64,000 bases of DNA from Escherichia coli (GTDB lineage: Bacteria > Pseudomonadota > Gammaproteobacteria > Enterobacterales > Enterobacteriaceae), in the NCBI RefSeq assembly GCF_036507355.1, contig NZ_AP027877.1, one strand, 5' to 3'. The notes under the pieces were generated by a model, which saw nothing but the letters and a program-made list of their open reading frames with translations, was not told the DNA's origin and did no database searches. Each line of letters starts with the position of its first letter. Positions within the stretch are counted from its first letter, which is position 1. Positions 742-22,043 of this stretch are shown in pieces. Both the position numbers and the translations under genes were made by a program.

Positions 742-759
742 CGTTTTGTGGTTTTGTAG

Positions 760-830
760 GCCGGATAAGGCGCTTGTGCCGCCATCCGGCAATGCCTGAT
801 GCGCTGCGCTTATCAGGCCTACAATGAACG
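760..830. repeat. REP-like palindromic element downstream of afuC
   Basis: gccggataaggcg / gcctgatgcgctgcgcttatcaggcctac motifs typical of enterobacterial REP units. Confidence 0.5.
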
Positions 831-849
831 ATGTAGACCCGATAAACCC

Positions 850-1782: not shown

Positions 1783-3172
1783 GTTCTGGCTCCTGTTTTG
1801 CGTTTCGGGGTTGAGTAAGGAAATAAGCACCATAGCACAACGCAACAAACGGTAACCCGCACCACAACGCAATTCTCTGCGCTGGATCGAATGCCAGCCC
1901 AACACAGGCCACCAGGCACAGCACAAAACCTAATACTGGCACCAGCGGATACCACGGCGCGCGATAATGTAATTCACTCAATGCCTTACCTTGTTGCAGA
2001 TGACGGCGACGAAAAACAAAATGCGAGGCGCAGATACTCAGCCACACCGCTACCACCGCAAACCCGGAGATTGCCGACAGCGCAACAAATACCGTGTCCG
2101 GGGCCACCACGCTGGAAAACAGCGCCAGCACACCACCGAGCATACTGACCGACAGCGCCGTCAGTGGCACGCCGTTTTTCGTTACTCGCGCAAAACAGGC
2201 CGGTAGCGTACGTTCATTCGACAACGACCACAGCATGCGCCCGGAGGCATATAACCCGGAGTTCGCTGCAGAAAGAATAGCCGTCAGGATCACGAAGTTA
2301 AAAATATCAGCGGCGTACGGGATCCCTACTTTCTCAAATACCAGCACAAACGGGCTTTTCTCCACGCCCGCCTGCTGCATCGGGATCAGCGCTGCCAGCA
2401 CAAACACGGTGCCGATAAAGAAAATAATCAGTCGCGCGATGGTAGTACGAATCGCTACCGGGATAACTTTGCGCGGGTTTTCCGTTTCACCGGCGGCAAT
2501 GCCGATAAGCTCGGTACCCGAAAAAGCAAAGTTCACTGCCACCATAGTCATCAAAATCGGTAAGCCACCGTGCGGGAACCAGCCTTCTGCCGTGATATTA
2601 CTCAGCCCCGGCGCGGGCGAGCCATCCTGCATCGGAATAAAGCCGAAAATCGCCGCCCCACCGAGGATGATAAAGGCGATGATAGTGACCACTTTGACCA
2701 GCGAGAACCAGAACTCCCCTTCGGCAAAAAAGCGCGTGGAGATAACATTCAGACCAAAAATAATCGCGCAGAACACCACGCACCAGACCCATACCGGCAC
2801 CTGTGGAAACCAGTACTGCATACAGAATCCAGCGGCGGTAAAGCTCGAACCCAGCGCCACGGTCCAGGTCAGCCAGTAAAGCCAGGCCACGGTATACCCG
2901 GTAGCCGGACCAAGATAGCGCGCGGCATAAACGTGAAACGCTCCGGTCTCCGGCATCGCGACCGACAGCTCGCCCAGACACTGCATAACCAGCCAGACCA
3001 CCAGCGCACCAATCAGATAGGCCAGCAGCGTTCCCGCCGCTCCAGTGGTGGAAATGATGTACCCGGTATTGAAGAATAATCCTGTGCCAATCACGCCGCC
3101 CAAGGAAAGCATAATCAGGTGACGCGTTTTCATTGTGCGCTTCAGTGGCGCATTTTGTTGTGTTGTTTGCAT
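1769..3172 (-). CDS. mmuP: S-methylmethionine permease, APC family (467 aa)
   Basis: ORF 1769..3196; start placed at [33 protein letters not shown]; polytopic amino-acid permease; overlaps mmuM start. Confidence 0.85.
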
Positions 3173-3347
3173 ATAACCTTCTAAACGCATGGACATCTAA
3201 ACATCCAAAGAAGGTTTGTTATACCGCGTTTGTTAACAGAATGCAAAGTCAACCCTGCACCAGACGCAGATGCCCGCGCCGGGCGCTTAATAGCGGGTGG
3301 GGATTAATAATCAGATACAAAAAGGGCCGCCAGCTCATAACGCCTCC

Positions 3348-4542
<1,195 letters not shown>

Positions 4543-4659
4543 CAAGAGAACGCAACAGCGCACTTGCTTTGCCACAGTTGAATTTTGTGCCGTAACGATG
4601 TGCAAGCATGTAAGCATAAGGAGTCAAGGTATAGCGTGTTACTTAGTTACTCGGATTAA

Positions 4660-5137
4660 CAATCCCAACGTACAGAGCGGCGGATTTACAGAGTCAGCGC
4701 AGTCCCTGCTCCGGCAGTCAGTGGCAGGCGGCGTACTGAAGCAAACCATTATCGATACCGGCATCGGCGATACCATCGGCATGCTGATGTCACACGGCAA
4801 TATTTCTCCCTACATCATGGCGTGGTTGATAACCGTGCTGATCCGTCTGGCAACGGGTCAGGGCGTGGTCTCAGCCATGACGGCGGCGGGGATTATTAGC
4901 GCAGCAATCCTCGACCCGGCAACCGGTCAACTGGTGGGCGTCGACCCGGCGTTGCTGGTGCTGGCAACAGCGGCTGGCTCCAACACGCTGACCCATATCA
5001 ACGATGCTTCGTTCTGGCTGTTCAAAGGCTACTTTGATCTGTCGGTGAAGGATACGCTGAAAACCTGGGGTCTGCTGGAGCTGGTAAACTCCGTGGTTGG
5101 CCTGATAATCGTGTTGATCATCAGCATGATTGCATAA
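4660..5137 (+). pseudogene. 3' fragment of a GntP-family permease gene, 5' part replaced by IS5
   Basis: Only the C-terminal ~150 aa remain (..[71 protein letters not shown]..); the track ORF 4271..5137 reads through the IS5 terminus. Confidence 0.5.
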
Positions 5138-5186
5138 CGTTGATACCGCTCTGGCCCACAGCGCCAGAGCGGTTTTCCATCCTGCC

Positions 5187-5882
5187 TCAACAATCCTCAA
5201 TAATCAGATATACCGCCTTCACCGGACCATGCACCCCAACCACCTTGATAAGCTCAATATCCGCCGTCGAGCTGGGTCCACTGATGATATTAATGCACGA
5301 TGGCATACGCTCACCGGCCTGTGCTTTCTGATGCAGTTTTTCTGCCAGCTGCGCCACGCGCGGCAGGATGGTGCTTTTACGCAGCACGAAAATAGAGGAC
5401 TCCGGCAACAGGCTCAGGGAGCGCCCGCGCTCCGGTGCGGAAAACAGCACCACGCCGCCGGACTCGGTCAGGCCATATTCGGCATACACCACGCCGACTT
5501 TCGCCTGCTCGGCCTGGGTAATATTTTCGCTACCACGCGCCGGATCCCAGACCACGGCGTTGCATTCCTGCTGCAAGCGTTCGGTGATGCCCAGCTCCAC
5601 CAGCCGGCTGTCGCCGCTCAGCACCACCGGCTGCTGACCCAATTCTTCGCACAGGCGCAGTGCCGCGTCTGCGGCCTGGTCCTCGCTGGTCAGTTCGCAG
5701 CGGGCCAGCATCACTTCGCTGGCAAACTGGATAAACGCAGAGCAGCGCTGCTCGGGGCTAAGCTCGGTCAGGCGCTCGTTGGCATAGTTGTTAACCGGTG
5801 CGGCATCCGCTTGCGGTTCGAAGCGCAGCGGGCGACCCAGCGCCTGGGCGATGGTGTTTAAAAACGCGGTACGGTTATCCAT
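5187..5882 (-). CDS. lutC: LutC/YkgG-family lactate utilisation protein C (231 aa)
   Basis: ORF 5187..6029 with internal start MDNRTAFLNTIAQALGRP; 8-nt overlap with upstream lutB end. Confidence 0.75.
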   Translation of the reverse strand: MDNRTAFLNTIAQALGRPLRFEPQADAAPVNNYANERLTELSPEQRCSAFIQFASEVMLARCELTSEDQAADAALRLCEELGQQPVVLSGDSRLVELGITERLQQECNAVVWDPARGSENITQAEQAKVGVVYAEYGLTESGGVVLFSAPERGRSLSLLPESSIFVLRKSTILPRVAQLAEKLHQKAQAGERMPSCINIISGPSSTADIELIKVVGVHGPVKAVYLIIEDC

Positions 5883-7302
5883 TCTTTTTCTCCTGCGCCT
5901 GATGTTTCTTAAACCAGCTGCGGAAGCTCTCGCCGTCAGCATCAGGCAGATCGCGCGCCTCCATCCAGTCACCAATCGCGCCAACCTTGAGCGGGGTTTT
6001 GCCGCCATTGATAAACCAGCTCGCCGCATGCGCGCCCGCCATCATCCCGACTTTCCACAGCCCCGGATGGCTATTGGCATAGGCGAACATCTTGATCGCC
6101 CGTCGCTCGGCTTTCGGCGTAATGCCCTCCTCGGCCATCACCCGGCGATGACGCAGGATCAGTTTTGACAACGGAATACGCACCGGGCAGACGCTGTCAC
6201 AAGCCGTGCACAAAGAACAGGCGTACGGCAGGTCTTTAAAATCTTTATAGCCGCCGAGCAGCGGAGAAATCACCGCGCCGATAGGGCCGGGATAGATAGA
6301 GCCATAGCCGTGCCCGCCGATGTGGCGGTACGCCGGACAGGTGTTCATACAGGCTCCGCAGCGGATGCAGCGCAGCACATCGCGAAACTCTGAGCCCAGC
6401 ACCTGCGAGCGACCGTTATCGACAATCACCAGATGGAACTCTTCCGGTCCGTCAACGTTGTCCGCCTCACGCGGGCCGGTCAGCCAGGTGTTGTAGCCCG
6501 TCAGACGTGCGCCCACGGCGCTGCGCGCCAGCATGGTAATCAGCACATCCACCTCGGCAAAGGTCGGCGCGATACGCTCCATGCCCATCACCGCAATGTG
6601 CGTTTTCGGTAGCGTGGTGCACATGCGCGCGTTGCCTTCGTTGGTCACCAGACACACCGAGCCGGTTTCCGCCACGGCAAAGTTACAGCCAGTAATACCG
6701 ATTTCGGCACTGAGGAAATCCTCGCGGATCTTCTGACGAATGAACAAGGTCATAGCTTCCGGGGTTTCCGGGCCGTCGTACCCCAGACGTTCGTTCAGCA
6801 CGCGGCGGATCTGGTAGCGATCTTTATGAATCGCCGGAACCACGACGTGCGAAGGCGGATCCTGATCCAACTGCAGGATATATTCCCCGAGATCGGTTTC
6901 GATCACCTGGATTCCGGCATCCTGCAACACATGGTTGACGCCGATTTCTTCGGTCACCATCGACTTGGACTTCACCACCTTCTGCGCATTTTTACTCTGC
7001 GCGACCTGCAAAATGTAGCGAGTGGCATCTTCTTTGGTTTTGGCGAAATAGACGTGTCCGCCGTTTTCCGTCACTTTCTCGGAGAGTTGGTACAGGTAAG
7101 CGTCGAGGTTGCTCAGAACGTGATCGCGGATCTGGCTGGCACGATCGCGCCATTCTTCCCAGTGGCCTAACTCATCGACCATTTTTTGCCGATTCGCGCC
7201 GATACGCTCCTGCGCATTAGCTACGGCTTTGCGCATAATCGGATCTTCTATCTGCTGACGAATACGCAGTTTAAATTCTACATCGCTGGTTTTTATCGAC
7301 AT
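5875..7302 (-). CDS. lutB: LutB/YkgF-family iron-sulfur lactate utilisation protein (475 aa)
   Basis: Two ferredoxin-type Cys clusters (CIRCGACMNTCP, CSLCTACDSVCP); length and order match LutB/YkgF. Confidence 0.85.
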   Translation of the reverse strand: MSIKTSDVEFKLRIRQQIEDPIMRKAVANAQERIGANRQKMVDELGHWEEWRDRASQIRDHVLSNLDAYLYQLSEKVTENGGHVYFAKTKEDATRYILQVAQSKNAQKVVKSKSMVTEEIGVNHVLQDAGIQVIETDLGEYILQLDQDPPSHVVVPAIHKDRYQIRRVLNERLGYDGPETPEAMTLFIRQKIREDFLSAEIGITGCNFAVAETGSVCLVTNEGNARMCTTLPKTHIAVMGMERIAPTFAEVDVLITMLARSAVGARLTGYNTWLTGPREADNVDGPEEFHLVIVDNGRSQVLGSEFRDVLRCIRCGACMNTCPAYRHIGGHGYGSIYPGPIGAVISPLLGGYKDFKDLPYACSLCTACDSVCPVRIPLSKLILRHRRVMAEEGITPKAERRAIKMFAYANSHPGLWKVGMMAGAHAASWFINGGKTPLKVGAIGDWMEARDLPDADGESFRSWFKKHQAQEKKNG

Positions 7303-7312
7303 CTCTTTCCCC

Positions 7313-8032
7313 TCAGCGGCTCATCAGCACTTCAGCAATATGCATCACTTTGACCGGCTGGCCTTCCCGTTGCAGTCGACCGCCAATGTTCAGCAGGCAG
7401 CTAACGTCTGCGCCAATCAAAAATTCCGGCTTTGCGTCCATCAGATGTAATACTTTCTCTTTCACCATCTCACCGGATATCTCGGCCATCTTGACCGAGA
7501 ACGTCCCGCCAAAGCCGCAACAGGTATCCTGATCGGCAAACGTCAACAGCTCCAGTCCGCGCACGTTTTTCAGCAGCGTAAGCGGCTCTTCCTTCACTCC
7601 CAGTTTGCGGGTCAGGCTACAGGAAGGATGATACACAGCGCGGCCCTGCAGGCTGGCACCAACGTCCACCACACCCAGTTTGTTGACGATAAAGGAGGTG
7701 AGATCCTGCATACGCGCGGAAACTTTCTCAGCACGCAGCGCCCATTCCGGTTCATCGGCCAGATACGTCGGGTAGCTTTTAACCGCGTAGGTGCAGGAGC
7801 CCGCCGGGGAGATAATCGGATCGTCGTTGTCTTCCAGCGCGGCGATCAGGTTTTTCATCCCGGGAATCGCCTCTTTGATGTAACCGCTGTTGATGGCTGG
7901 CTGACCGCAACACCCTTGCTTCTCGGGGAAATTAACGCGACAACCCAGTTTTTCCAGCAGCAATACGGAGTCTCGTGCCATCCGTGATTTCAGTGCGTCA
8001 CCAATACAGGTGACAAAGAAATTTACATTCAC
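7313..8032 (-). CDS. lutA: LutA/YkgE-family Cys-rich Fe-S oxidoreductase subunit (239 aa)
   Basis: CCG-type Cys-rich domain (FVTCIGD.., CCGQPA.., CCGFGG); first gene of the lutABC-like trio. Confidence 0.85.
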   Translation of the reverse strand: MNVNFFVTCIGDALKSRMARDSVLLLEKLGCRVNFPEKQGCCGQPAINSGYIKEAIPGMKNLIAALEDNDDPIISPAGSCTYAVKSYPTYLADEPEWALRAEKVSARMQDLTSFIVNKLGVVDVGASLQGRAVYHPSCSLTRKLGVKEEPLTLLKNVRGLELLTFADQDTCCGFGGTFSVKMAEISGEMVKEKVLHLMDAKPEFLIGADVSCLLNIGGRLQREGQPVKVMHIAEVLMSR

Positions 8033-8069
8033 AATAACTACTCCATTGCTTCATTTCTGTTTATTGCGC

Positions 8070-8087
8070 TTGATATCGCGATATCAA
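8070..8087. promoter_or_regulatory. Perfect 18-bp palindrome TTGATATCGCGATATCAA between the dld-like stop and lutA start
   Basis: Read directly from sequence; self-complementary; no T-run follows on either strand, so more likely an operator than a terminator. Confidence 0.3.
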
Positions 8088-8106
8088 ACAAATGTTCATT
8101 CGTATT

Positions 8107-9804
8107 TCATGCCCAGTTTTTATGTTTGCTGGTTTTACCAATACCTGGGTTCATAGTGTTGGTCGGATCATTTTCCTGATAAAAACGTGCCAAATTTTCC
8201 GGCGCTTTATACAGATGGCCGACATTGTGTTCCGCCGGATATTGCGCTCCGCGTTGGCGCAGTAATTCCAGCATCTGTTCTTTTAACGCGTGGGCATCTA
8301 CGCCTTTTTTAACGATATAATCCTGATGGAATACATGGCACATAAAATGGCCGTAATAGAGTTTATGCACCAACTGACTGTCAATTTCCGTCGGTAAATG
8401 CTCATACCATTCGGTATCATTGCGGCGTAATGGAATATCCAGCGCGAGAATATCCTCAACCTCGTCAGAATGAACAGCCTGATAACGAATGGCAGCACCC
8501 GCGGCGGCAAAACGATGCAGAAACGCCTTACTGCCCTCTTCCGCGGTACAGGTAAAGAACGCGCCCTCGGCCGATTTAAAATAGTCCGTTAACCATGCCT
8601 GGGCTTCGGCCACACCCTCACCGGACATTTTCAACATCAGATGGTGTTCATAGTTATCGCGCCAGGTCTTCATCCGCGCCGGGAGATGGCTCGGGAACAG
8701 ATGGCTAAAAGCCTGCATCGCGCGGTCGGTAAAGTGCGGGCGAAAGATCTTCACCTTCTCAAGTATGGCCTCGGTACGCCCCTTCAGGTTGAAGAAGAAC
8801 GGCATTTTGTCCGTGCCAAGTTTGTCGATCATCAGGAAGGTATCTTTGCTGTATTTCTCTGCAATATCATAGATATCGCGGTGCATATACTCCCCAGCAA
8901 CCGGCAGGTTTGTAAAATTCGCCAGGATGTGGCGGCGAATCTCAGTCAGGACATCAGTCTGATTGGTACCGATATAAAAGACCTGCTGGTTCTTCTCGGC
9001 TTCAAAGGTATCCAGACGTACGGCAAACACCGCTAACTTGCCCGCACAGCCAGAGGATTCAAACAGGCGATCCGGGTCAGCGTTGTAACGTGCTGGCGTG
9101 TCGGCATTGATGTCCCGCACGCGGCTAACATAGTCGTGATCGTGCGCGTGACGCCCGTCATGGTTGACGAGCACGGCTTCAATCGCATTGTTATCCAGCC
9201 GGGCAAGGATTTGCTCTGGCGTCTGACCTAGCTCAATGCCGAGGTGATTGACCAGCTGCAAGCGTCCCTGTTCATCAATACGGGCAAACAGCGACATCTC
9301 GGTATAAGCCGGGCCACGCTGGACCAGAGAACCGCCGGAGTTATTACAGATACCGCCGATAACCGACGCGCCGATGCACGAAGAGCCAATCACCGAATGC
9401 GGCTCACGGCCAAACGGCTTCAGCGCCTTTTCCAGCGAATACAGCGTGGTGCCCGGATAAGCCAGCACCTGCTTACCCTCATCTAGCACATGCAGACTGT
9501 CCAGCCGCAGCGTGCTGATAATGACGATCTCGCGGTCGTAATCATTACCATTGGGCGTCGAACCCTCAGTCAGGCCAGTGTTCGACGCCTGCATCAGGAT
9601 TATTTTATCGGCCTCAACGCAGGCGCTAAGGACTTTCCAGAGTTCAAGCAAAGAGCCGGGGATAACCACCGCCAGAGCATCACCCTGACCCGAGCGAAAA
9701 CCCTTACGGTAACGCGCAGTTTTTGACGGTTCGGTGAGGATATGAGCAGGGCCAACCAATTGGGTAAGAGTTGTCAAAAAGGTCTTATTATCAGTATGTT
9801 TCAT
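8107..9804 (-). CDS. dld: FAD-dependent D-lactate dehydrogenase, Dld paralogue (~565 aa)
   Basis: Collinear full-length similarity to E. coli Dld (..ARYRKGFRSGQGDALAVV.PGSLLELW.., ..RHILANF.NLPVAGEYMHRDIYDIAEKY..); start chosen at MKHTDNKTFL inside ORF 8107..9852; many substitutions versus K-12 Dld as recalled. Confidence 0.8.
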   Translation of the reverse strand: MKHTDNKTFLTTLTQLVGPAHILTEPSKTARYRKGFRSGQGDALAVVIPGSLLELWKVLSACVEADKIILMQASNTGLTEGSTPNGNDYDREIVIISTLRLDSLHVLDEGKQVLAYPGTTLYSLEKALKPFGREPHSVIGSSCIGASVIGGICNNSGGSLVQRGPAYTEMSLFARIDEQGRLQLVNHLGIELGQTPEQILARLDNNAIEAVLVNHDGRHAHDHDYVSRVRDINADTPARYNADPDRLFESSGCAGKLAVFAVRLDTFEAEKNQQVFYIGTNQTDVLTEIRRHILANFTNLPVAGEYMHRDIYDIAEKYSKDTFLMIDKLGTDKMPFFFNLKGRTEAILEKVKIFRPHFTDRAMQAFSHLFPSHLPARMKTWRDNYEHHLMLKMSGEGVAEAQAWLTDYFKSAEGAFFTCTAEEGSKAFLHRFAAAGAAIRYQAVHSDEVEDILALDIPLRRNDTEWYEHLPTEIDSQLVHKLYYGHFMCHVFHQDYIVKKGVDAHALKEQMLELLRQRGAQYPAEHNVGHLYKAPENLARFYQENDPTNTMNPGIGKTSKHKNWA

Positions 9805-10239
9805 GGAGGGCGGCTCTCCGCTCCTTATATCAGGGCCAGTGAAAATGGCCATAAGTTCATTTGTACGACAAAACAGAATATTCCCTCAATCAATATCCAC
9901 ATGCAATACCCCATTTTATTTCTTTCGGCACCGCTCACATTTTTTAATGAAATTACCACTACCACATAATTCATACTCCGTTCTTTTACTGGATGCCAAA
10001 ACGCTTATTTCATTTATTGCAAAGACCATTTCATACCTATTAATGATTAACTCTAATGGGTATTATTATATTTAGTGGTTATTCATATTTAATAAAAAAA
10101 TAACATTATTTATACAATTATTAACCTTTGTAACTTTATTTCACTGAAGCGATTCAGTTTGCATTTTTTATTTTATTATTAAGGTAGCCTCCTTCCCCCT
10201 AAATATAGTTAAGTCTAAAAAAGTAAATCGAGAATTGTA

Positions 10240-11793
10240 ATGCACGAATATTTAATGTTTGCCCTGGCACTCTCTCCTTTGCTGCTGATGGTATTTTTAA
10301 TACTGAAATTAAAAATGCCCATCCATTATTCCGTACTGATCTCTTTGGTATTCACCGCTGCACTATCGGCAATATTCTGGGAAATGCCCACACAGAATCT
10401 GAAAGCCGCGATAGGCTATGGTGCACTGAAGGGACTATGGCCGATCGTAATTGTTATCCTCGGCGCTATCTTCAGTTATAACGTCATGCAGGCGACCAAA
10501 GCGCTGGATATTCTGCGCGATATTCTCGCCAGCATTAGCGAAGATAAGCGTATTCAGGTGCTGCTGATTTCATGGTGTTTTGGTGGATTTCTTGAAGCCG
10601 CTGCGGGCTATGGCACGGCGGTCGCTATTCCGATCGGTATTCTCATTGCGCTGGGATTCAACCCGTTGAAGGCGGCGATTGCTTCCCTCGTAGCAAATAC
10701 CGTTCCGACCGCATTTGGCGCGGTTGGGATCCCAGTTTCTATTCTGGCAGAGCAGGTTAATCTGCCGGTTTATACCTTAGGCGGAACCATTATTTTGCAG
10801 CTCGCGCTGTTTAATATCCTGCTGCCGTTTGTGATTGTCTGCATTATTGGCGGTGGCCTGAAAGCCATTCGCGGCGTATTTCTGATCACGTTGATTTGCG
10901 GCATTTCCACGCTGGTTCCGCAATATTTTGTCGCCATCCATCTTGGCGCGGAATTACCCGCCTTTGCCGGTAGCCTGGTCAGCCTGTTTGCCGTGGCGAT
11001 GGTCAGTCGCCTGCGCAAAGGGAAAACCGATCCCGAGTGGCGCATTGAGGTCAGCCATACCCGCGAAACCACGCCGCGCTCGGCAAAAGTGTTGTTCCGG
11101 GTTGGCTCTATTTATCTGTTTATTTTTGTGTTTATCCTGCTGTGTTCGCCGCTGTTCCCGACAATAAAAAGCGTGGCATCCCAACTGGCTTCGGTGCTGC
11201 ATTTCACGTTGGCTGACGGCAAAACGATGGCGCTGAAAGTTGAATGGGCGACCACACCGGGGATGCTGATCATCTTTGCGACCATTATCGGCGGTTTTAT
11301 TCAGGGAGCGTCCGCACGTGGGATGCTGGAAGTATTTATCAAAACGATTTTCCAGCTTAAAAACTCTATCGTCGCAATTATGGCGATCGTCGCGCTGGCC
11401 ACGGTGATGGATCTCAGCGGGATTATCTCCACGCTGGCCCAGTCGATTGTCGATCTGACCGGCAGCTCGTACGTCTTCCTCGCCCCGGTGATTGGCGCGC
11501 TGGGCACGTTCGTGACCGGCAGCGATACCAACTCGAACATTCTGTTCGGCAAGCTGCAAACCATTGCCGCCAGCAAGTTACATATCGATCCTAACTGGCT
11601 GGCGGCGGCCAATACCTCTGGCGCTACGGGGGGGAAAATGATTTCGCCGCAAAGCATCGCCATCGCAGTTTCTGCCACCAAAATGGACGGTCAGGCCAAC
11701 CAGATTATGTCTGGCACCATGAAATACTGCTGCGCCTACATTGTGATCCTCGGCCTGAAAGTCGGTCTGTTTTATTACTGGTTTATGGCGTAA
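10240..11793 (+). CDS. L-lactate permease, LctP family (517 aa)
   Basis: Polytopic membrane protein with the LctP-family N-terminus; divergent from the dld-like operon across a 435-bp AT-rich region. Confidence 0.8.
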   Translation: MHEYLMFALALSPLLLMVFLILKLKMPIHYSVLISLVFTAALSAIFWEMPTQNLKAAIGYGALKGLWPIVIVILGAIFSYNVMQATKALDILRDILASISEDKRIQVLLISWCFGGFLEAAAGYGTAVAIPIGILIALGFNPLKAAIASLVANTVPTAFGAVGIPVSILAEQVNLPVYTLGGTIILQLALFNILLPFVIVCIIGGGLKAIRGVFLITLICGISTLVPQYFVAIHLGAELPAFAGSLVSLFAVAMVSRLRKGKTDPEWRIEVSHTRETTPRSAKVLFRVGSIYLFIFVFILLCSPLFPTIKSVASQLASVLHFTLADGKTMALKVEWATTPGMLIIFATIIGGFIQGASARGMLEVFIKTIFQLKNSIVAIMAIVALATVMDLSGIISTLAQSIVDLTGSSYVFLAPVIGALGTFVTGSDTNSNILFGKLQTIAASKLHIDPNWLAAANTSGATGGKMISPQSIAIAVSATKMDGQANQIMSGTMKYCCAYIVILGLKVGLFYYWFMA

Positions 11794-11995
11794 ACCATTG
11801 TCAACCCCGTCAAATTCGCGGCAATCGAATTTGACGACATAGTGACCAAAAAGGTTTACACCGCCCCGGGAACGGAACGAGGCAACAGACTTTACGATTT
11901 GTCGGCGCTGACTAAAATAGCGCCGATGTTTCAAATCGAGGATTGTTGTTATGTTGTTCTGGAAAAAGATGGTGAAGAAGTTCGACGCCTTTTCC

Positions 11996-12350
11996 GGTGA
12001 TGCTGCCAACTTACTGATTTAGTGTATGATGGTGTTTTTAAGGTGCTTGCGTGGCTTCCATTTCCATCAGATGTCCTTCCTGCTCCGCTACTGAAGGCGT
12101 GGTGCGTAACGGCAAAAGCACTGCCGGACATCAGCGCTATCTCTGCTCTCATTGCCGTAAAACATGGCAACTGCAGTTCACTTACACCGCCTCTCAGCCC
12201 GGTACGCACCAGAAAATCATTGATATGGCCATGAATGGCGTCGGATGTCGCGCCAGTGCACGCATTATGGGCGTTGGCCTCAACACGATTTTCCGCCATT
12301 TAAAAAACTCAGGCCGCAGTCGGTAACCTCGCGCATACAGCCGGGCAGTG
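11996..12350 (+). mobile_element. IS1 left portion (~355 bp), truncated by an IS2 insertion
   Basis: IS1 terminus GGTGATGCTGCCAACTTACTGATTTAGTGTATGATGGTG at 11996; intact insA; sequence switches to the IS2 terminus at 12351. Confidence 0.85.
12051..12326 (+). CDS. insA: IS1 InsA (91 aa, variant allele)
   Basis: [68 protein letters not shown].. Confidence 0.9.
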
Positions 12351-12979
12351 TAGACTGGCCCCCTGAATCTCCAGACAACCAATATCACTTAAATAAGTGA
12401 TAGTCTTAATACTAGTTTTTAGACTAGTCATTGGAGAACAGATGATTGATGTCTTAGGGCCGGAGAAACGCAGACGGCGTACTACACAGGAAAAGATCGC
12501 TATCGTTCAGCAGAGCTTTGAACCGGGAATGACGGTCTCCCTTGTTGCCCGGCAACATGGTGTGGCAGCCAGCCAGCTATTTCTCTGGCGTAAGCAATAC
12601 CAGGAGGGAAGTCTTACTGCTGTGGCTGCCGGAGAACAGGTCGTTCCTGCCTCTGAACTTGCTGCCGCCATGAAGCAGATTAAAGAACTCCAGCGCCTGC
12701 TCGGCAAAAAAACGATGGAAAATGAACTCCTTAAAGAAGCCGTTGAATATGGGCGAGCAAAAAAGTGGATAGCGCACGCGCCCTTATTGCCCGGGGATGG
12801 GGAGTAAGCTTCGTCAGCCGTTGTCTCCGGGTGTCGCGTGCGCAGTTGCACGTCATTCTCAGACGAACCGATGACTGGAAGGAAGGCCGCCGCAGCCGTC
12901 ACACGGATGATACGGATGTGCTTCGCCGTATACACCATGTTATCGGAGAGCTGCCCACATATGGTTATCGTCGGGTATC
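12351..12979 (+). mobile_element. IS2 left ~630 bp, 3' part deleted
   Basis: IS2 terminus TAGACTGGCCCCCTGAATCTCCAGACAACCAATATCACTTAAATAAGTGATAGTC at 12351; insC intact; insD reading frame leaves IS2 after ..PTYGYRRV near 12979. Confidence 0.85.
12442..12807 (+). CDS. insC: IS2 OrfA / InsC (121 aa)
   Basis: [56 protein letters not shown]..; A7 slippery run at 12707-12713. Confidence 0.9.
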
Positions 12980-13235
12980 CGGTCCCACCTTGCAGGTTTT
13001 ACGTACCCGCCAGTCGCCCGATGGCTGCGAGGATGGCAGTTACTACTACCTCGTGGATATGCAGAGAAAAACCGTCCAGCCACTGATGAATGCGCTGTGT
13101 ATTGCCGATAACATCAAACTGGAATACCAGGAGGTGACGGACCCGTATACCAAAGAAAAATACTTTGAGTACGCCCATGACGGCAAACTGATGGGGCAGC
13201 TACTGATACCCTCGAACCCTGACAATCAGGAATAA
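12765..13235 (+). pseudogene. Chimeric ORF: IS2 InsD N-terminus fused in frame to the 3' part of a YafY/YfjS-family lipoprotein gene
   Basis: N-terminal half is InsD (..[21 protein letters not shown]); C-terminal half (..[39 protein letters not shown]..) parallels the intact lipoprotein at 55404..55856. Confidence 0.7.
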
Positions 13236-13258
13236 AAACAACGATAAAGGAAACAGAA

Positions 13259-13726
13259 ATGACAATACGTTCACTAAGTCGGTTTGTGCTGGTGGGTGTA
13301 CTGCTCGCGAGCTTTAATGCCTCTGCTATCCCGGGGTTCTGGCAGCAGGGTTACGGTCAGGGCAATACGGAATACAGTGTGACCGAAGCCAGCGGGAAGA
13401 CGTTTACCATCAACTGCACAGGGAACCCGGACCAGAATGGTTTTTATCAGCATTCAGTCTTTCTTACCCTTGCCGATGACAAGATGGTCAGTTCGCACGA
13501 TGACGACACTACTATCACCGTAGTGATGGATCACCAGCAGTACATTATTCCGTCCAGCCTGGGCTGGCGTAACGGCGATAACGCCTGGTTTGACTTCATC
13601 AGCAATATCTCTGAGGCCGGGCAGTTCGACGTCTACGTCAATGACCACAAAGCAGGGACCTTCACTGCGGACCGGAAGAACGCTGAGAAAGTTCTGTCCA
13701 CTCTCGGAGACTGCAGCAACGACTGA
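13259..13726 (+). CDS. Secreted protein of unknown function, prophage-remnant module (YkfB-position)
   Basis: N-terminal signal peptide [23 protein letters not shown]; position between lipoprotein fragment and DUF905 gene. Confidence 0.55.
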
Positions 13727-13802
13727 TAGTAGTATCTTCCCCAGCAAATCCACCCCGACAGCTAGCAGGCTGCCGGGGTTTTCTTTTATCAGGAGCCCGA
13801 AA

Positions 13803-14042
13803 ATGACCCAATCCGTGTTGCTGCCACCGGGGCCTTTCACCCGGAGACAAGCGCAAGCGGTCACTACCACGTACAGCAATATCACACTCGAAGACGACCA
13901 GGGCAGTCACTTCCGTCTGGTGGTTCGTGATACTGAAGGCCGGATGGTCTGGCGGGCATGGAACTTTGAGCCGGATGCCGGTGAAGGTCTTAACCGCTAT
14001 ATCCGCACCTCAGGCATCCGTACAGACACGGCCACCCGCTGA
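13803..14042 (+). CDS. Small DUF905-like protein (79 aa, YkfF-position)
   Basis: ATG at 13803 inside ORF 13590..14042; size and position as in CP4-6/CP4-57-type modules. Confidence 0.5.
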
Positions 14043-14139
14043 TCGCGAAGCATTTACCCGCATTCACCTCCCCGAACACACTTTATATCCCCATACGCCA
14101 GCCATCGCCGCTGGCGTTTTTATTGACGGAGACATACCC

Positions 14140-14598
14140 ATGACAACACAGACGCAGCACGACCTCGCACCCGCTAACCAACCCGAATTTGAACTGACCG
14201 TCACGCCGGTCCCCGATGAACAGCGTATCGATTTCTGGCCACAGTACTTTGGCGCTATCCCGCAGTGGCTACTCCTGGAGCCGCATATCTTCGCCTGGAT
14301 GGACCGCTTCTGTGAGGGCTACAGCGGTGGTATCTGGTCGTTCTACACCCTCAGCAATGGCGGCGCATTTATGTCCCCCGAGCCTGACAACGATGAGACA
14401 TGGCGTCTGTTTAACTGCCTGAACGGTAACGATGCCCAAATGAGTGCAGAAGCAGCAGGTATTGCTGTCTGCCTGATTGCGTATAGCCACCATGCCTGCC
14501 GTACAGAATGTGACGCGATGACCGCACACTATTACCGCCTGCGGGAGTATGCCATGCAACATCCAGAGGCTCACGCCATTCTGCGTATTATCGACTGA
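14140..14598 (+). CDS. Antirestriction protein, ArdB/KlcA-like (YafX/YfjX family)
   Basis: ..[51 protein letters not shown].. ; paralogue of 58068..58538. Confidence 0.75.
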   Translation: MTTQTQHDLAPANQPEFELTVTPVPDEQRIDFWPQYFGAIPQWLLLEPHIFAWMDRFCEGYSGGIWSFYTLSNGGAFMSPEPDNDETWRLFNCLNGNDAQMSAEAAGIAVCLIAYSHHACRTECDAMTAHYYRLREYAMQHPEAHAILRIID

Positions 14599-14613
14599 CC
14601 GAAGGAGCAACAG

Positions 14614-15090
14614 ATGAAACAGCTTTCCTTTTTACCCGGCGAGATGACGCCACAGGACCGGCGTCTCATTCAGCGGGCGCTCAGGGCTCTGGACCGCCAC
14701 CTGCATGAGCCCGGCGTAGCCTTCACCTCTACCCACGCCGTACGTGAATGGCTGCGACTGCATATGGCCGCGCTTGAGCGGGAAGAGTTCCGGGTGTTGT
14801 ATCTGGACAACCAGAATCAGTTGATTGCCCATGAAACGCTCTTCACCGGCACGATTAACCGCACCGAGGTGCATCCCCGGGAGGTGGTCAAACGTGCTCT
14901 GCACTTCAACGCGGCGGCGGTGATACTCGCGCATAACCATCCTTCCGGCGAGACGACACCTAGCCAGGCCGACAAAACCCTCACGCAGCGACTGGTTCAG
15001 GTGCTTCAGCTGGTGGATATCCGTGTCCCTGACCATCTGATTGTCGGTGGCAGGCAAATCTATTCGTTCGCAGAACACGGTCTGCTTTGA
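14614..15090 (+). CDS. RadC-like JAB-domain protein (YkfG/YfjY/YeeS family)
   Basis: JAMM-like motif ..AAAVILAHNHPSGETTPSQADKTLTQRL.. Confidence 0.8.
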   Translation: MKQLSFLPGEMTPQDRRLIQRALRALDRHLHEPGVAFTSTHAVREWLRLHMAALEREEFRVLYLDNQNQLIAHETLFTGTINRTEVHPREVVKRALHFNAAAVILAHNHPSGETTPSQADKTLTQRLVQVLQLVDIRVPDHLIVGGRQIYSFAEHGLL

Positions 15091-15098
15091 GGTATTAC

Positions 15099-15320
15099 AT
15101 GAAAATTATCAGTAAACGCAGGGCAATGACGATATACCGCCAGCATCCTGAGTCCCGAATCTTTCGCTACTGCACCGGCAAATACCAGTGGCACGGTAGC
15201 GTCTGTCATTACACCGGCAGGGACGTTCCGGATATCGCCGGAGTCCTCGCGGTATACGCCGAACGCCGCCAAGACCGCAATGGGCCCTATACCTGCCTGA
15301 TGAGCATCACCCTGAACTGA
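15099..15320 (+). CDS. DUF987 protein (YkfH/YpjJ/YeeT family)
   Basis: MKIISKRRAMTIYRQHPESRIFRYCTGKYQWHGSVCHYTG.. ; paralogue at 59050..59271. Confidence 0.7.
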   Translation: MKIISKRRAMTIYRQHPESRIFRYCTGKYQWHGSVCHYTGRDVPDIAGVLAVYAERRQDRNGPYTCLMSITLN

Positions 15321-15338
15321 CAATAGTGGAGAACTGTA

Positions 15339-16018
<680 letters not shown>

Positions 16019-16399
16019 ACATTGCGTACAACCTTCCCGATTTACATTTCTGAACTTCCTCCCTTGTTTACCTATTGCGTAATGCGCCTGCTACTACCCG
16101 GCAGGCGCGTTATCTTTTTACGGACAAACAATCATGCAACCAGAAGTTGAAGTATTAACCGATCATAATGAGCTAATTTGTTCGAGCTTTATTGAACACA
16201 TTGCCAACACATTAAATTTAGGAGTGGTGTACAACTAAACCTGCAGCCAAGGATGTATAGTGAGCGAAGCCCTATCAGGCCTTTTTGGTCAGTAGATAAG
16301 ATTGATCTTCGTTGATAGAATTTACTTACACCAGCTGTTACATTAAGATAATTTTTTGGTGGGAGAATGATAAGATCTTACGTAACAATTTGATTTTAA

Positions 16400-16475
16400 T
16401 GGTGCCGATAATAGGAGTCGAACCTACGACCTTCGCATTACGAATGCGCTGCTCTACCAACTGAGCTATATCGGC
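16400..16475 (-). tRNA. thrW: tRNA-Thr (anticodon CGU)
   Basis: Reverse complement reads GCCGATATAGCTCAGTTGGTAGAGCAGCGCATTCGTAATGCGAAGGTCGTAGGTTCGACTCCTATTATCGGCACCA. Confidence 0.9.
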
Positions 16476-16589
16476 CCTGAAAGGACATGTTCACGAACGT
16501 GAATCACGGTGGACAAGGTTAAAACTAACCGGGCGATGCGTCAATGGCCTTGTGAATCAAATGGCTACTTTTGCATCACCCGATTTTAT

Positions 16590-17843
16590 TTACGCACGAA
16601 TGGTGTAATCACCAATGCCGATCCACTTGTAAGTGGTCAGTGCTTCCAGCCCCATTGGGCCACGCGCGTGGAGTTTTTGTGTGCTTACCGCCACTTCCGC
16701 ACCCAGTCCAAACTGGCCGCCGTCGGTAAAACGCGTAGAGGCGTTAACGTAAACAGCGGACGAATCCACTTCGTTAACAAAACGCTGGGCGTTGCGCATA
16801 TCGCGGGTCAGGATCGCATCGGAGTGTTGTGTGCCGTGTTCACGAATATGGGCGATGGCATCGTCAAGATCGCTGACGATTTTGACGTTCAAATCTAATG
16901 ACAGAAACTCATCGTCATACTCTTCGGCTTTAACCGCCACCACCTTCGCGGGGCCTGCCTGCAACTGTGTCAGCGCAGCTGCATCTGCGTGTAATGTCAC
17001 GCCGCTTTCCGCCATTTGTTTGCTTAATACGGGCAGGAAGCTATCGGCGATGTTTTTATTCACCAGCAACGTTTCTACCGTATTACATGTGCTCGGACGC
17101 TGAGTTTTCGCATTGACGATTACTTTCAGGGCTTCAGCAATCTCTGCACTTTCATCAACATAAATATGGCATACGCCTATACCACCTGTGATCACCGGGA
17201 TCGTCGACTGCTCGCGGCACAGTTTATGCAAACCAGCCCCGCCGCGCGGGATCAGCATGTCGATGTATTTATCCATACGCAGCATTTCACTGACCAGCGC
17301 ACGGTCAGGATTATCAATCGCCTGCACGGCACCCGCCGGTAAGCCACAGGATTTCAGGGCGTCCTGAATCACCGCCACCGTTGCCGCGTTAGTGCGACAG
17401 GTTTCTTTGCCACCACGCAGGATCACCGCATTACCGGTTTTCAGGCACAGCGAAGCGACATCAACCGTCACGTTCGGGCGCGCTTCATAAATCACGCCAG
17501 TAACCCCCAGCGGTACGCGACGACGCTCAAGACGCAGGCCGCTGTCCAGTACGCCGCCATCGATTACCTGCCCCACCGGATCGGCGAGGTTGCACACCTG
17601 GCGCACATCATCGGCAATGCCTTTCAGCCGTGCGGGCGTCAGTGCCAGACGGTCAAGCATCGCTTCGCTAAGGCCATTGGCTCGCGCGTCAGCAACATCC
17701 TGGGCGTTAGCGTTGAGGATGATTTCGCTTTGTGCTTCCAGTTCATCGGCGATTTTTTCCAGCACGCGATTTTTTTCGCGGCTGGAGAGTTGCGCTAATT
17801 TATACGAGGCTTGCTTCGCGGCAATGCCCATTTGTTCCAGCAT
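16590..17843 (-). CDS. proA: gamma-glutamyl phosphate reductase (417 aa)
   Basis: Full-length match to ProA. Confidence 0.95.
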
Positions 17844-17854
17844 CGGCCAGCTCC

Positions 17855-18958
17855 TTAACGGGTAATCATGTCATCACGGTGAACGGCAACCGGGCCGTAT
17901 TCATATCCCAGTATTGCATCAATTTCTTGCGAGTGGTGTCCGGCAATACGGCGTAATGCATCGCTGTTGTAACGACTGACGCCGTGGGCGATATCGCGAC
18001 CTTCGAGGTTACAAATGCGGATGACTTCACCACGCGAGAAATTGCCAGTCACGCTTTTAATGCCTTTCGGCAACAGGGAGCTGCCGCATTCAAGAATGGC
18101 GGCAGTTGCCCCTTCATCTACCGTGATTTCACCCGCCGGCGGCGCACCGAAAATCCAGCGTTTACGGTTTTCAAGCGGAGTCGCCTGGGCATGGAACAGC
18201 GTACCGACGGAAATGCCTTCCATCACATCACCAATGACGCCCGGCTTGCTGCCCGCGGCAATAATGGTGTCGATACCCGCACGGCAAGCCACGTCCGCGG
18301 CCTGCAATTTGGTACTCATGCCGCCAGTTCCGAGGCCTGAAACGCTGTCACCGGCAATCGCGCGCAGTGCGTCATCAATACCGTAAACATCTTTAATCAA
18401 TTCTGCCTGCGGATTACTGCGCGGGTCAGCGGTATACAAACCTTTTTGATCGGTCAGTAACAACAGTTTATCGGCACCCGCCAGAATCGCCGCCAGTGCA
18501 GAAAGGTTGTCGTTATCGCCGACTTTAATCTCTGCCGTAGCGACAGCATCGTTCTCATTGATTACCGGAACGATATTGTTATCGAGCAACGCACGCAGGG
18601 TGTCGCGGGCGTTCAGGAAGCGTTCACGGTCTTCCATATCAGCACGGGTCAGCAGCATTTGCCCGACGTGAATGCCATAAATTGAAAACAGCTGTTCCCA
18701 CAGTTGAATCAGTCGACTCTGCCCTACCGCCGCCAGCAGTTGTTTCGAGGCGATAGTCGCTGGCAGTTCTGGGTAACCCAGGTGCTCACGTCCGGCGGCG
18801 ATCGCGCCCGACGTCACAATAACAATCCGATGCCCGGCGGCATGTAACTGCGCGCACTGGCGAACAAGTTCAACGATATGGGCACGGTTCAGGCGGCGCG
18901 ATCCGCCTGTTAGCACACTGGTGCCGAGTTTTACCACCAGCGTCTGGCTGTCACTCAT
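17855..18958 (-). CDS. proB: glutamate 5-kinase (367 aa)
   Basis: Start at [19 protein letters not shown] inside ORF 17855..19045. Confidence 0.95.
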
Positions 18959-19245
18959 GATTCTCTGCCATTCAATTTTAGGAAAAATGATATCAAACGA
19001 ACGTTTTAGCAGGACTGTCGTCGGTTGCCAACCATCTGCGAGCAAAGCATGGCGTTTTGTTGCGCGGGATCAGCAAGCCTAGCGGCAGTTGTTTACGCTT
19101 TTATTACAGATTTAATAAATTACCACATTTTAAGAATATCATTAATCTGTAATATATCTTTAACAATCTCAGGTTAAAAACTTTCCTGTTTTCAACGGGA
19201 CTCTCCCGCTGAATATTCGCGCGTTAATTAAAATCAGGAATGAAA

Positions 19246-20301
19246 ATGAAAAAGAGCACTCTGGCATTAGTGGTGATGGGCATTGTGGCATCTGCATCCG
19301 TACAGGCCGCAGAAATATATAACAAAGACGGTAATAAACTGGATGTCTATGGCAAAGTTAAAGCCATGCATTATATGAGTGATAACGACAGTAAAGATGG
19401 CGACCAGAGTTATATCCGTTTTGGTTTTAAAGGCGAAACACAAATTAACGATCAACTGACTGGTTATGGTCGTTGGGAAGCAGAGTTTGCCGGTAATAAA
19501 GCAGAGAGTGATACTGCACAGCAAAAAACGCGTCTCGCTTTTGCCGGGTTGAAATATAAAGATTTGGGTTCTTTCGATTATGGTCGTAACCTGGGCGCGT
19601 TGTATGACGTGGAAGCCTGGACCGATATGTTCCCGGAATTTGGTGGCGACTCCTCGGCGCAGACCGACAACTTTATGACCAAACGCGCCAGCGGTCTGGC
19701 GACGTATCGGAACACCGACTTCTTCGGCGTTATCGATGGCCTGAACTTAACCCTGCAATATCAAGGGAAAAACGAAAACCGCGACGTTAAAAAGCAAAAC
19801 GGCGATGGCTTCGGCACGTCATTGACATATGACTTTGGCGGCAGCGATTTCGCCATTAGTGGGGCCTATACCAACTCAGATCGCACCAACGAGCAGAACC
19901 TGCAAAGCCGTGGCACAGGCAAGCGTGCAGAAGCATGGGCTACAGGTCTGAAATACGATGCCAATAATATTTATCTGGCAACTTTTTATTCTGAAACACG
20001 CAAAATGACGCCAATAACTGGCGGCTTTGCCAATAAGACACAGAACTTTGAAGCGGTCGCTCAATACCAGTTTGACTTTGGTTTGCGTCCATCGCTGGGT
20101 TATGTCTTATCGAAAGGGAAAGATATTGAAGGTATCGGTGATGAAGATCTGGTCAATTATATCGATGTCGGTGCTACATATTATTTCAACAAAAATATGT
20201 CAGCGTTTGTTGATTATAAAATCAACCAACTGGATAGCGATAACAAATTGAATATTAATAATGATGATATTGTCGCGGTTGGCATGACCTATCAGTTTTA
20301 A
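19246..20301 (+). CDS. phoE: outer membrane phosphoporin PhoE (351 aa)
   Basis: [37 protein letters not shown].. ending ..VGMTYQF. Confidence 0.95.
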
Positions 20302-20309
20302 TGATTATT

Positions 20310-20330
20310 GCCGGATGTGATGCATCCGGC
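20310..20330. terminator. Shared hairpin between convergent phoE and crl
   Basis: gccggatg-tgatg-catccggc immediately after the phoE stop. Confidence 0.5.
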
Positions 20331-20339
20331 ACATTTCAC

Positions 20340-20798
<459 letters not shown>

Positions 20799-22043
20799 TT
20801 AACACAAGCGTTTTTCGATCCAGTCGGTGATTTCCTGAAGACCTTTGTCAAAATTCCGATACACCGGGTTAAATGGGATCTCTAATAATTTACCGTCAGC
20901 AGATGATGAGGTGATTAAGCGTGAGTCCTCTTCCGGGCTGAACGGATCGTTCTTCCAGTAGCCTGATAACATTGGCGTTGGGCAGCGACGTCCCAGCAAT
21001 CCTTGCACTTTTAATGAATAGCGATTCAGCTCCACGCGCAACGCTTCATCGGAAGCATCATGCATCCCCAAACGACTCGCCAGAACGTCAAGATACATTT
21101 CCGGCACCTGTTGCTGGCACTTAAAATCACTCAACAGGGTATGAACTACCGGACCAAGACAGGCAACCGCTTTCAGACGCGGCGATTCAAGATATGCCAG
21201 ACGCACGGCAACGTTAGCGCCGAAACGGAAACCAAAGGCCGCGACGCGAGTGTGATCCACCCACGGTACGTTAGGCAGAGCCTTTAAGACGTGCTGATGC
21301 AACAGGCTGGAGTCCTGGGTGAGCTTCCATTTTGATGAAAAGCCCACCGACGGCATATCAATAGTCAGCATCGCAATGCCGCGCGGCGCAAAATAACGTT
21401 CATACAGGCTGTAATAGTCCGTCTGCATCGCATCCAGACCACCACACATTAATACCGTCGGGAACGGGCCATCGCCTTTCGGCATATGCAAAAAGCCGGT
21501 GATGGGCGCACCGCCGGGTACGGTAAACTCCATCTGCCGCATCGTGCCCGGCAGACGCTGAGCGGCCTCTTCATAGGCGCGGTTTGACAAAGTCTGCGCT
21601 TGCTCGGCCAGGTCATCTCCTTTCAGATGAGGATAGGCGGCAATGTTGTACAACGTAGCCGCATGCAGCCAGTGACGACCACTGAGTTGCGGATCTTCTT
21701 CCGCACAGGCTTTTTGTTGCCACACCATCGCCTGGGTGGCCCACTCATAAATCCAGTTGCCGCCACGGTAGCCAATCACCGTATCGTATAAATCATCGTC
21801 GGTACGTTCGGCATCGCTCATCACAATACGTGCCTGGACGTCGAGGATTTCGCGTGGGTCAATGCCGCGCCAGATCCACATCAGACGGTTAATCATGCGA
21901 TACCAGTGAGGGATGGTTTTACCATCAAGGGCCGACTGCACAGGCGGTTGTGCGCCGTGATTAAAGCGGCGGACTAGCGTCGAGGTTTCAGGATGTTTAA
22001 AGCGGGGTTTGAACAGGGTTTCGCTCAGGTTTGCCTGTGTCAT
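20799..22043 (-). CDS. frsA: esterase FrsA (414 aa)
   Basis: Full-length match; alpha/beta hydrolase. Confidence 0.9.

Follow-up and report, generated by a model that had tools for sequence, protein, structure and literature searches.

What is left of the two insertion sequences (ISs) that meet at the edge of the thrW island in this Escherichia coli strain, in which order did they arrive, and does the open reading frame (ORF) that runs out of them into a neighboring gene encode anything of use? These questions are raised by positions 11,996 to 13,235 of a stretch of 64,000 nucleotides (nt) from contig NZ_AP027877.1 (assembly GCF_036507355.1), which in its full length is called the window in the following. 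At these positions an IS1 is interrupted by an IS2, and the IS2 is fused in frame to the 3' part of the lipoprotein gene yafY. Our answer is that the region is a non-functional, strain-specific scar, the product of several mobile-element events that followed each other in an island of the CP4-6 type at thrW, and we give this reading a probability of about 0.88.

The composition of the scar follows from blastn alignments of the window to IS1A, IS1F, IS2A and the CP4-6 region, all taken from the K-12 genome NC_000913. Window positions 11996-12350 correspond to IS1 nt 1-355 (92.4% identity to IS1A and 97.2% to IS1F), positions 12351-12978 to IS2A nt 1-628 (96.3% identity) and positions 12976-16646 to NC_000913 266369-262700, that is from yafY codon 62/63 through thrW/proA (99.5% identity). 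Since all of these matches are near-identical to known elements, chance is no issue for the identity of the segments. Between 12350 and 12351 the IS1 end ...GGGCAGTG abuts the left IS2 terminus TAGACTGGCCCC exactly, and the IS2 and yafY alignments overlap by the three base pairs TAT (12976-12978). No further IS1 or IS2 sequence occurs anywhere in the 64-kb window. The initial annotation had stated that IS1 stops at 12350 where an IS2 terminus begins, and that IS2 stops within insD after ..PTYGYRRV and continues in frame into the 3' half of a lipoprotein gene. Both observations are confirmed to the base: alignment to the reference elements places IS1 nt 355 and IS2 nt 1 side by side at this very position, the ORF consists of InsD 1-71 and YafY 63-147, and of the genomes with an intact lipoprotein gene at thrW, K-12 aligns with its CP4-6 to the right of the breakpoint and the relative L067 on both sides of it. 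The features of the scar and the neighboring permease gene are as follows.

11996..12350, plus strand: left fragment of IS1, nt 1-355 of 768 (blastn); left inverted repeat (IRL) and insA intact, without insB' and right inverted repeat (IRR).
12051..12326, plus strand: insA ORF, 91 amino acids (aa), GTG start, intact (Pfam Zn_ribbon_InsA and HTH_Tnp_IS1, E = 6e-20 and 2e-29).
12351..12978, plus strand: left fragment of IS2, nt 1-628 of 1331 (blastn), with IRL, insC and the first 71 insD codons, without DDE catalytic domain and IRR.
12442..12807, plus strand: insC (IS2 OrfA, 121 aa), intact (NCBIfam NF006928 'IS2 repressor TnpA', 276 bits vs. a cutoff of 229).
12759..12765, plus strand: A6G slippery heptamer of the IS2 -1 frameshift, intact (sequence).
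12765..13235, plus strand: chimeric ORF, 156 aa, InsD 1-71 plus YafY 63-147 (ORF list, alignment and domain matches).
12976..12978, no strand: deletion junction with the 3-bp microhomology TAT, where IS2 nt 626-628 coincide with yafY codons 62/63 (three-way comparison of window, IS2A and K-12).
12979..13235, plus strand: 3' part of yafY, codons 63-147 and stop (99.5% identity to K-12 CP4-6), without signal peptide and lipobox (residues 1-21).
10240..11793, plus strand: lactate permease gene, the last gene of the lactate module (Pfam Lactate_perm, E = 3e-125; TIGR00795, 402 bits vs. a cutoff of 341).

Both insertion sequences are remnants. From 11996 onwards the window is identical to IS1A nt 1-44, including the terminal inverted repeat GGTGATGCTGCCAACTTACTGAT, and both the zinc ribbon and the helix-turn-helix domain of InsA (PF03811 and PF12759) score above cutoff. 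The element stops at nt 355 without the second inverted repeat and without insB' with its DDE domain, and therefore is an IS1 fragment and not a mobile IS1. The IS2 begins with its IRL terminus and orfA, and its OrfB is reduced to InsD 1-71 (NF006918: 146 bits vs. a cutoff of 597). Since the DDE (rve) domain and IRR are missing, this element is a fragment, too. With only one end each and no catalytic domain, both should be immobile. The small regulators InsA and InsC may still be expressed and could act on other copies. Before its truncation the IS2 was a functional isoform and not a decayed copy, since none of the 15 nucleotide differences in insC alters the protein, which is identical to K-12 InsC. 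Full-length copies of this isoform (99.6% identity) are found in E. coli genomes.

The order of events can be read from relatives, namely draft E. coli genomes and one metagenome contig that we found by searching for the exact protein sequence of the lactate permease. They share the junctions of the permease flank (lctP) with IS1 and of IS1 nt 355 with IS2 nt 1 (at least 99.9% identity over 7.7 kb). In L023, L024 and L027, which possess the same lctP-IS1(1-355)-IS2 junction with 99.97-99.99% identity over 7.7 kb, the arrangement is IS1(1-355)-IS2(1-627)-IS2(1100-1331)-IS1(351-768) and then a type III restriction endonuclease gene. In these three genomes CAGTG (IS1 nt 351-355) is present on both sides of IS2. 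This 5-bp target duplication demonstrates a true insertion of IS2 into IS1, in agreement with what had been proposed from the window.

Other relatives have lost the right part of IS2 in different ways. In L021, L022, L025 and L067, IS2(1-627) is joined to the middle of an SNF2-type helicase gene, beyond which brxR, ykfA, yafZ, a WYL regulator gene, a ypjK-like gene, an intact yafY and the remainder of the island follow, and in L026 IS2(1-205) is joined to yafW. The reverse complement of L067 matches the window in two blocks (1-8855 to window 4123-12977 and 14491-20906 to window 12976-19391), so that exactly 5,635 bp of L067, from IS2 nt 627 to yafY codon 62, are absent from the window. The collinearity on both sides of the missing DNA bears out the earlier suggestion that a deletion extended from a point within IS2 into the island. 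To the right of the junction, window and L067 differ by 2 single-nucleotide polymorphisms (SNPs) in the 3.6 kb of the island, while the core genes proA/proB are about 2% different, and therefore the same island lineage resides in different strain backgrounds. By their SNPs, the window, the L023 group and L026 belong together, while two derived SNPs set L021/L067 apart.

The initial annotation had counted at least two sequential events. This number holds as a minimum, since IS1 was rearranged as well. Its left 355 bp are a mosaic of an IS1F-like part (nt 45-265) and an IS1A/B-like part (nt 266-355). At the identical lctP junction of other genomes (G47-1, EC2001 and AH04; L006, L007 and L008) there is a pure IS1A/B, which differs from the window at 24-27 positions in 355 bp. 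Insertion of IS1 creates a target duplication of 8-9 bp. In relatives that keep the right half of IS1, its flanks are CGCCTTTTCC and GATGAAGCC, which do not represent a target duplication. A mosaic isoform without flanking target duplication implies a rearrangement of IS1 itself, and points to recombination between IS1 copies or gene conversion as the process that shaped IS1 at the lctP boundary.

We propose the following course of events. In a first step, which is documented by the CAGTG duplication, IS1 was already the right edge of the gntP'-lutCBA-dld-lctP module when it took up IS2 after nt 355. In a second step, of which the net difference is seen directly and the mechanism is deduced, a deletion would have extended from IS2 nt 626-628 to yafY codon 62/63 and would have been sealed at 2-3 bp of microhomology. 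It would have taken away 704 bp from the right end of IS2 and 418 bp from that of IS1, together with ykfA, yafZ, the WYL regulator gene, the ypjK-like gene and the first 62 yafY codons. Judging from the relatives, it would also have removed a defense cluster with type III restriction-modification, OLD-like, DUF4391, SNF2 and brxR genes. Compared to an ancestor with a whole IS2, we estimate the loss at approximately 18 kb, a value that is summed from the gene lengths in L064-type islands and assumes that the L023-type island has the L064 gene set. In L064-L071, loci retrieved by a brxR look-up, the gene order is brxR-SNF2 (1092 aa)-DUF4391-OLD-like-DUF2130-methyltransferase-Res (1023 aa), adjoining ykfA, and a Res gene lies directly to the right of IS1 in L023.

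Some points weigh against this reconstruction. The Res alleles are only 91-93% identical and no L023-type genome was found to cover the DNA between Res and SNF2, which bears on the 18 kb. A genome with an undeleted IS2 inside this IS1 was not recovered among the relatives; the parent of the window may have been of the full-length, the L023 or the L021/L067 type. Moreover, only 64 kb of the source genome are visible, and a reciprocal junction elsewhere would mean an inversion or a translocation. Finally, the unique IS2-yafY junction may be a misjoin.

The last two points correspond to two other explanations of the junction. An inversion or translocation that broke both IS2 and yafY might have left it as one of its two products, with the missing genes still present elsewhere in the chromosome. 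The short visible part of the genome leaves room for this, and the region does rearrange, since the order of mmuPM/afuC and the lactate module differs between the window and G47-1-type genomes. However, IS2 nt 629-1331, IS1 nt 356-768, ykfA, yafZ and the 5' end of yafY are absent from the window, which contains only a paralogous island of 67-75% identity. In addition, the sister genomes exhibit graded, one-sided losses from the same point (L023, L021/L067 and the window, and L026 with its break at nt 205), which is the pattern of deletions. We therefore regard an inversion or translocation as very unlikely.

It might also be argued that a multi-copy IS was wrongly joined to unique DNA during assembly and that the real genome is of the L067 or the L023 type. 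One side of the junction is indeed a repeat. The junction was found neither in 5,426 complete E. coli genomes (BLAST with 200-bp junction probes) nor in GTDB species representatives or metagenome contigs (exact-pattern scans), and the chimeric protein is unrecorded. In contrast, the IS2 isoform differs from the common IS2 at about one position per 27 bp and is thus effectively unique for an assembler, and the left 980 bp of the nested structure are reproduced in more than 20 independent assemblies. Furthermore, the break coincides with a recurrent natural IS2 breakpoint and shows microhomology like real junctions, which is not expected of a random misjoin. An assembly artefact is thus highly improbable, and the deletion remains our explanation of the junction. 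The contiguous IS1-IS2 junction, too, is found in none of the 5,426 complete genomes. About 12 of them carry the lactate module with the identical lctP-IS1 left junction, followed by a whole IS1A/B-type IS1 and then afuB'-fbpC-mmuM-mmuP.

Next to the deletion itself, its product deserves consideration. The chimeric ORF ends at the native yafY stop codon. Its residues 1-72 match positions 1-72 of 301 of IS2 TnpB (NCBIfam), and its residues 71-156 match positions 28-113 of 113 of the Pfam family PF20494 YfjS_YafY (E = 3.9e-47). The YafY tail differs from K-12 YafY 63-147 by one substitution, E92R. Residues 1-62 of K-12 YafY, including the lipobox L-I-A-C, are replaced by InsD 1-71. The gene is annotated as 'YfjS/YafY family lipoprotein' in RefSeq, but since signal peptide and lipobox are gone, the yafY piece is a gene fragment, the product of which cannot be a lipoprotein. 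The loss of both should have inactivated YafY, and the fusion ORF is most likely a pseudogene. In IS2, the A6G heptamer is the site of a -1 frameshift, and a simulated frameshift at this site would yield a 264-aa InsC-InsD'-YafY' chimera. An exact look-up of the chimeric protein in a public gene index returned no record.

One could assume that the InsD'-YafY' chimera is a selected functional gene, for instance a new regulator or a relocalized YafY domain. The reading frame is open across the junction up to the native stop, the promoter region at the IRL of IS2, insC and the frameshift site are all intact, and a second IS2 stump, in L073, is likewise fused in frame. However, an in-frame fusion has a prior of one in three, so the frame by itself carries no weight. 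Among the junctions checked, those of the window and L073 keep the frame; in L023 a stop follows after 2 codons, L021 enters the helicase gene in antisense, and L051 is out of frame, too. The YafY part has lost signal peptide and lipobox, the InsD part has no catalytic domain, and the junction is known from a single genome. A selected function of the chimera is extremely improbable. The in-frame reading appears to be an accident, and nothing suggests selection for the chimera.

The point at which IS2 is broken leads beyond this strain. Three sister alleles break IS2 within nt 626-628 and continue into different partners, namely IS2 nt 1100, the SNF2 gene and yafY. In total, at least ten independent junctions interrupt IS2 at nt 626-628 (after InsD ...PTYGYRRV) and lead to unrelated partners, among them yafY, the SNF2 gene, IS2 nt 1100, arsC, a phage esterase gene, the tnpA genes of IS66 and IS200, and others. 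DNA junctions at this point with different partners are present in the window, L023, L021, L073, L195 and L197. The microhomology is TAT in the window, GGTA in L021/L067, GTA in L023, TA in L073 and TATGGG in L051; in all deletion junctions it comprises 2-6 bp and the IRL side is retained.

These junctions were collected in separate searches. A metagenome scan for nt 600-627 of the isoform returned 35 copies, one of which, L051, changes from IS2 to arsC at nt 626-631. A scan of viral contigs for copies that depart from the native sequence right after nt 610-627 identified one, L073. In L073 an IS2A-type copy is broken after nt 627 and joined inside the phage esterase gene, and 825 bp of host DNA are missing. 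The remaining 3' truncations among 122 IS2 copies in viral contigs are at nt 688, 1020 and 1158, and no mirror truncation starting at nt 628 was found in the scan of these contigs. A phage collection contained only 10 IS2 copies, too few to inform. On the protein level, a profile-free search with InsD 1-150 among 1.84 billion representative proteins identified about 25 near-identical N-terminal fragments with foreign tails, of which five distinct clusters end exactly at ...RRV (P0155, P0160 and P0162-P0164). DNA was recovered for three of these five proteins (L195, L196 and L197). L195 and L197 read GGGTA and then continue into unrelated sequence; in L196, IS2 is split between nt 626 and 627 by an ISL3-family element of 1,766 bp and resumes past it. 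A homolog search with full-length InsD was uninformative on truncations, as the best 120 matches were all full-length.

The clustering far exceeds chance in two independent sets, namely the metagenome and viral sequences (p = 0.0025) and the island lineage (p = 1.4e-4), so that nt 626-628 of IS2 represent a real hotspot. Since it recurs as a breakpoint in unrelated copies, the left endpoint of the deletion in the window is not random. A site-preferred break or strand transfer at nt 626-628 probably initiated the deletion, and microhomology joining to downstream DNA would have followed. A second, smaller truncation cluster is located after InsD V59 (...RIHHV) at about nt 591, with three different foreign tails (P0190, P0196 and P0214). 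The heptamer GTTATCG is found at nt 589-595 and at nt 614-620.

A possible but doubtful explanation is that a cryptic internal IS2 end (nt 628-647, TGGGCGCTGCTTCGCAGACA) pairs with IRR via the transposase, which would promote one-sided deletions. Strand transfer of IRR just outside the internal end would leave a 3'-OH at T626/A627, which would then be joined downstream at a microhomology. Every crossover interval includes nt 626-627, only the IRL-side stump is retained, and the missing mirror truncations in viral contigs agree with this. Furthermore, nt 628 begins TGG like the outer end of IRR, with the canonical CA-3' on the other strand, and the sole internal copy of the inverted-repeat core hexamer CAGACA is located at nt 642-647. 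In the normal IS2 pathway the 3'-OH of IRR attacks 1-2 nt outside the other end (PMC3299598), which fits a cryptic internal end. The anchoring of the IS2 transposase maps to inverted-repeat positions 20-42 (PMC3299598).

Several observations argue against such an internal end. The gapped similarity of nt 628-669 to the IS2 ends is not significant, as 12.7% of the interior 42-mers align equally well, and the best ungapped match of the hotspot region to IS1 or IS2 ends has a p value of about 0.08. CAGACA lies 6 nt closer to the end than it does in true ends, and element III (TATCACTT) is missing. The ISL3-family element in L196, which is unrelated and sits at the exact site, points to a property of the DNA as a target and not to the IS2 transposase, and the microhomology at all junctions fits end-joining or template switching without a transposase. 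The alternative to the cryptic end is a DNA-intrinsic fragile or target site in combination with microhomology joining. An analysis of DNA secondary structure at nt 580-730 detected no unusual folding (z = +1.0). We therefore put forward only tentatively, as a possibility that we rate as rather unlikely at present, that IS2 has a previously undescribed internal site (T626/A627, insD codon 71) of recurrent transposase-driven strand transfer or cleavage. Such a site would give rise to orfA-retaining stumps and one-sided deletions, and the BrxR cluster would have been lost in this way in one or several steps.

Four further ideas about the breakpoint were rejected. A shared CGG motif right after the junction is broken by L073 and L195. 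Selection for in-frame products does not agree with the frames of the stumps (window and L073 in frame; L023, L021 and L051 out of frame). An internally deleted IS2 without nt 628-1099 is not a spreading mini-IS, as the complete genomes contain only full-length copies of the isoform and never that junction. Neither is IS2(1-627) a mobile unit, since the flanks in L073 are not contiguous target DNA, with the 825 bp of host DNA missing. In the literature we found nothing relevant on the thrW lactate module or on truncated IS2.

The scar had also been described as the right-hand boundary of the lactate module. This module consists of a gntP fragment, lutC/B/A-like genes, a dld-type D-lactate dehydrogenase gene (8107-9852) and the permease gene, and IRL of IS1 is located 202 bp downstream of the latter. 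The junction ...GACGCCTTTTCC (lctP flank) to GGTGATGC (IS1) is invariant among all carriers examined, including G47-1, EC2001, AH04 and L021-L028, in line with that description. Judged by these sequences, the left end of IS1 is the conserved right edge of the module. The module as a whole behaves as a unit bounded by IS5 and IS1. Its position relative to the neighboring genes is permuted: the window has the order fbpC-mmuM-mmuP-IS5-gntP'-lut-dld-lctP-IS1', and strains with the LHR (heat-resistance) region (L006, which is G47-1, L007 and L008) have the order IS5-gntP'-lut-dld-lctP-IS1-afuB'-fbpC-mmuM-mmuP-mhpT. In G47-1, the heat-resistance locus (clpK, sHSP20, yfdX, kefB-GI and others) follows about 15 kb past the module, beyond the mhp genes. 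In the E. coli genome L012 (GCA_020515135.1), IS1 joins a lutB/ykgF-type gene straight to ykfA of the thrW island, a further IS1-bounded rearrangement.

The window is collinear with K-12 from 278.5 to 234.9 kb, in the opposite direction. From left to right it contains afuC'-mmuM-mmuP, an IS5-family element, the lactate module, the IS1/IS2/yafY scar, the right end of CP4-6 (ykfB to ykfI), thrW and proA/proB. The IS5-family element (3348-4542) is ISKpn26-like and 95.6% identical to IS5A. It is located at the same boundary upstream of mmuP as IS5A in K-12, in the opposite orientation, which is consistent with an inversion or an exchange between IS5 copies. The crl gene is uninterrupted at 20663-20670, the point at which IS1I sits in K-12 MG1655. 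Between yafV and aspV there is a 23.5-kb island that is not present in K-12 (38348-61857). This island contains remnants of a type VI secretion system (a VgrG fragment at 47531-49237, DUF4123 and a Tle1-like phospholipase at 40893-42953), two IS3-family transposase genes and a second CP4-type module (ykfA-like, DUF932 and DUF5983). An intact YfjS/YafY paralog (55404-55856) belongs to this second module.

The presumably lost BrxR-headed cluster, represented by L064-L071 and by L021 7268-9789, encodes an SNF2 helicase (1092 aa), DUF4391, an OLD-like ATPase/TOPRIM protein, DUF2130, an N6/N4 methyltransferase and a type III Res. L070 and L072 have a variant gene content in this slot. The BrxR slot in CP4-type islands looks like a hot-swappable slot for anti-phage defense.

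The scar is of a common kind, its exact allele occurs in one known genome only, and it is probably functionless. Its import is local: it dates and orders events in the thrW island of one strain, marks the fixed right edge of a mobile lactate-utilization module and records the loss of an anti-phage defense cluster. It was also the lead that exposed the recurrent IS2 breakpoint, the one unusual point. If the hotspot were confirmed and explained, the annotation of IS2 remnants would be affected, since many 'partial IS3-family transposase' calls would share one endpoint. It would also bear on the modeling of IS-linked deletions in E. coli and in Shigella genome reduction, and on the side reactions of copy-out/paste-in transposition. 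If an internal IS2 site truly exists, this would amount to a deletion pathway, anchored at a fixed point inside the element, for IS2 and perhaps for further copy-out/paste-in elements.

A close comparison is that with the sister alleles (L023/L024/L027, L021/L022/L025/L067 and L026), which are the same as the window in the lactate module, the lctP-IS1 junction and the IS1(355)-IS2(1) junction. They differ in the partner of the IS2 stump, which is IS2 nt 1100 in the L023 type, the SNF2 gene in L021/L067 and, from nt 205, yafW in L026, whereas yafY codon 63 is the partner in the window and nowhere else. G47-1, EC2001 and AH04 share with the window the gntP'-lutCBA-dld-lctP module and its left junction with IS1. 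However, their IS1 is complete and uninterrupted, and afuB'-fbpC-mmuM-mmuP are located to the right of IS1, while in the window these genes are found to the left of the module.

A similar nested arrangement is known from K-12. In IS911A::IS30A of CP4-6, insN is interrupted by insI1, so that in the same thrW island family one IS is split by another and annotated as gene fragments. Both this arrangement and the scar in the window are fossil records of sequential transposition. They differ in that the K-12 example keeps both outer halves and the whole inner IS, whereas the window keeps only IS2 nt 1-628 and has lost the right half of IS1 in the later deletion that fused IS2 to yafY. The adjacent deletions that are classically promoted by IS1, IS10 and IS30 resemble the nested series of the window and its sister genomes in the one-sided loss of flanking DNA from a fixed point to variable distal points. 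Yet in these classical deletions the whole IS is kept and the fixed endpoint is its terminus. Here, in contrast, the endpoint lies inside the element at IS2 nt 626-628, the distal part of IS2 is gone and 2-6 bp of microhomology are found at the junctions.

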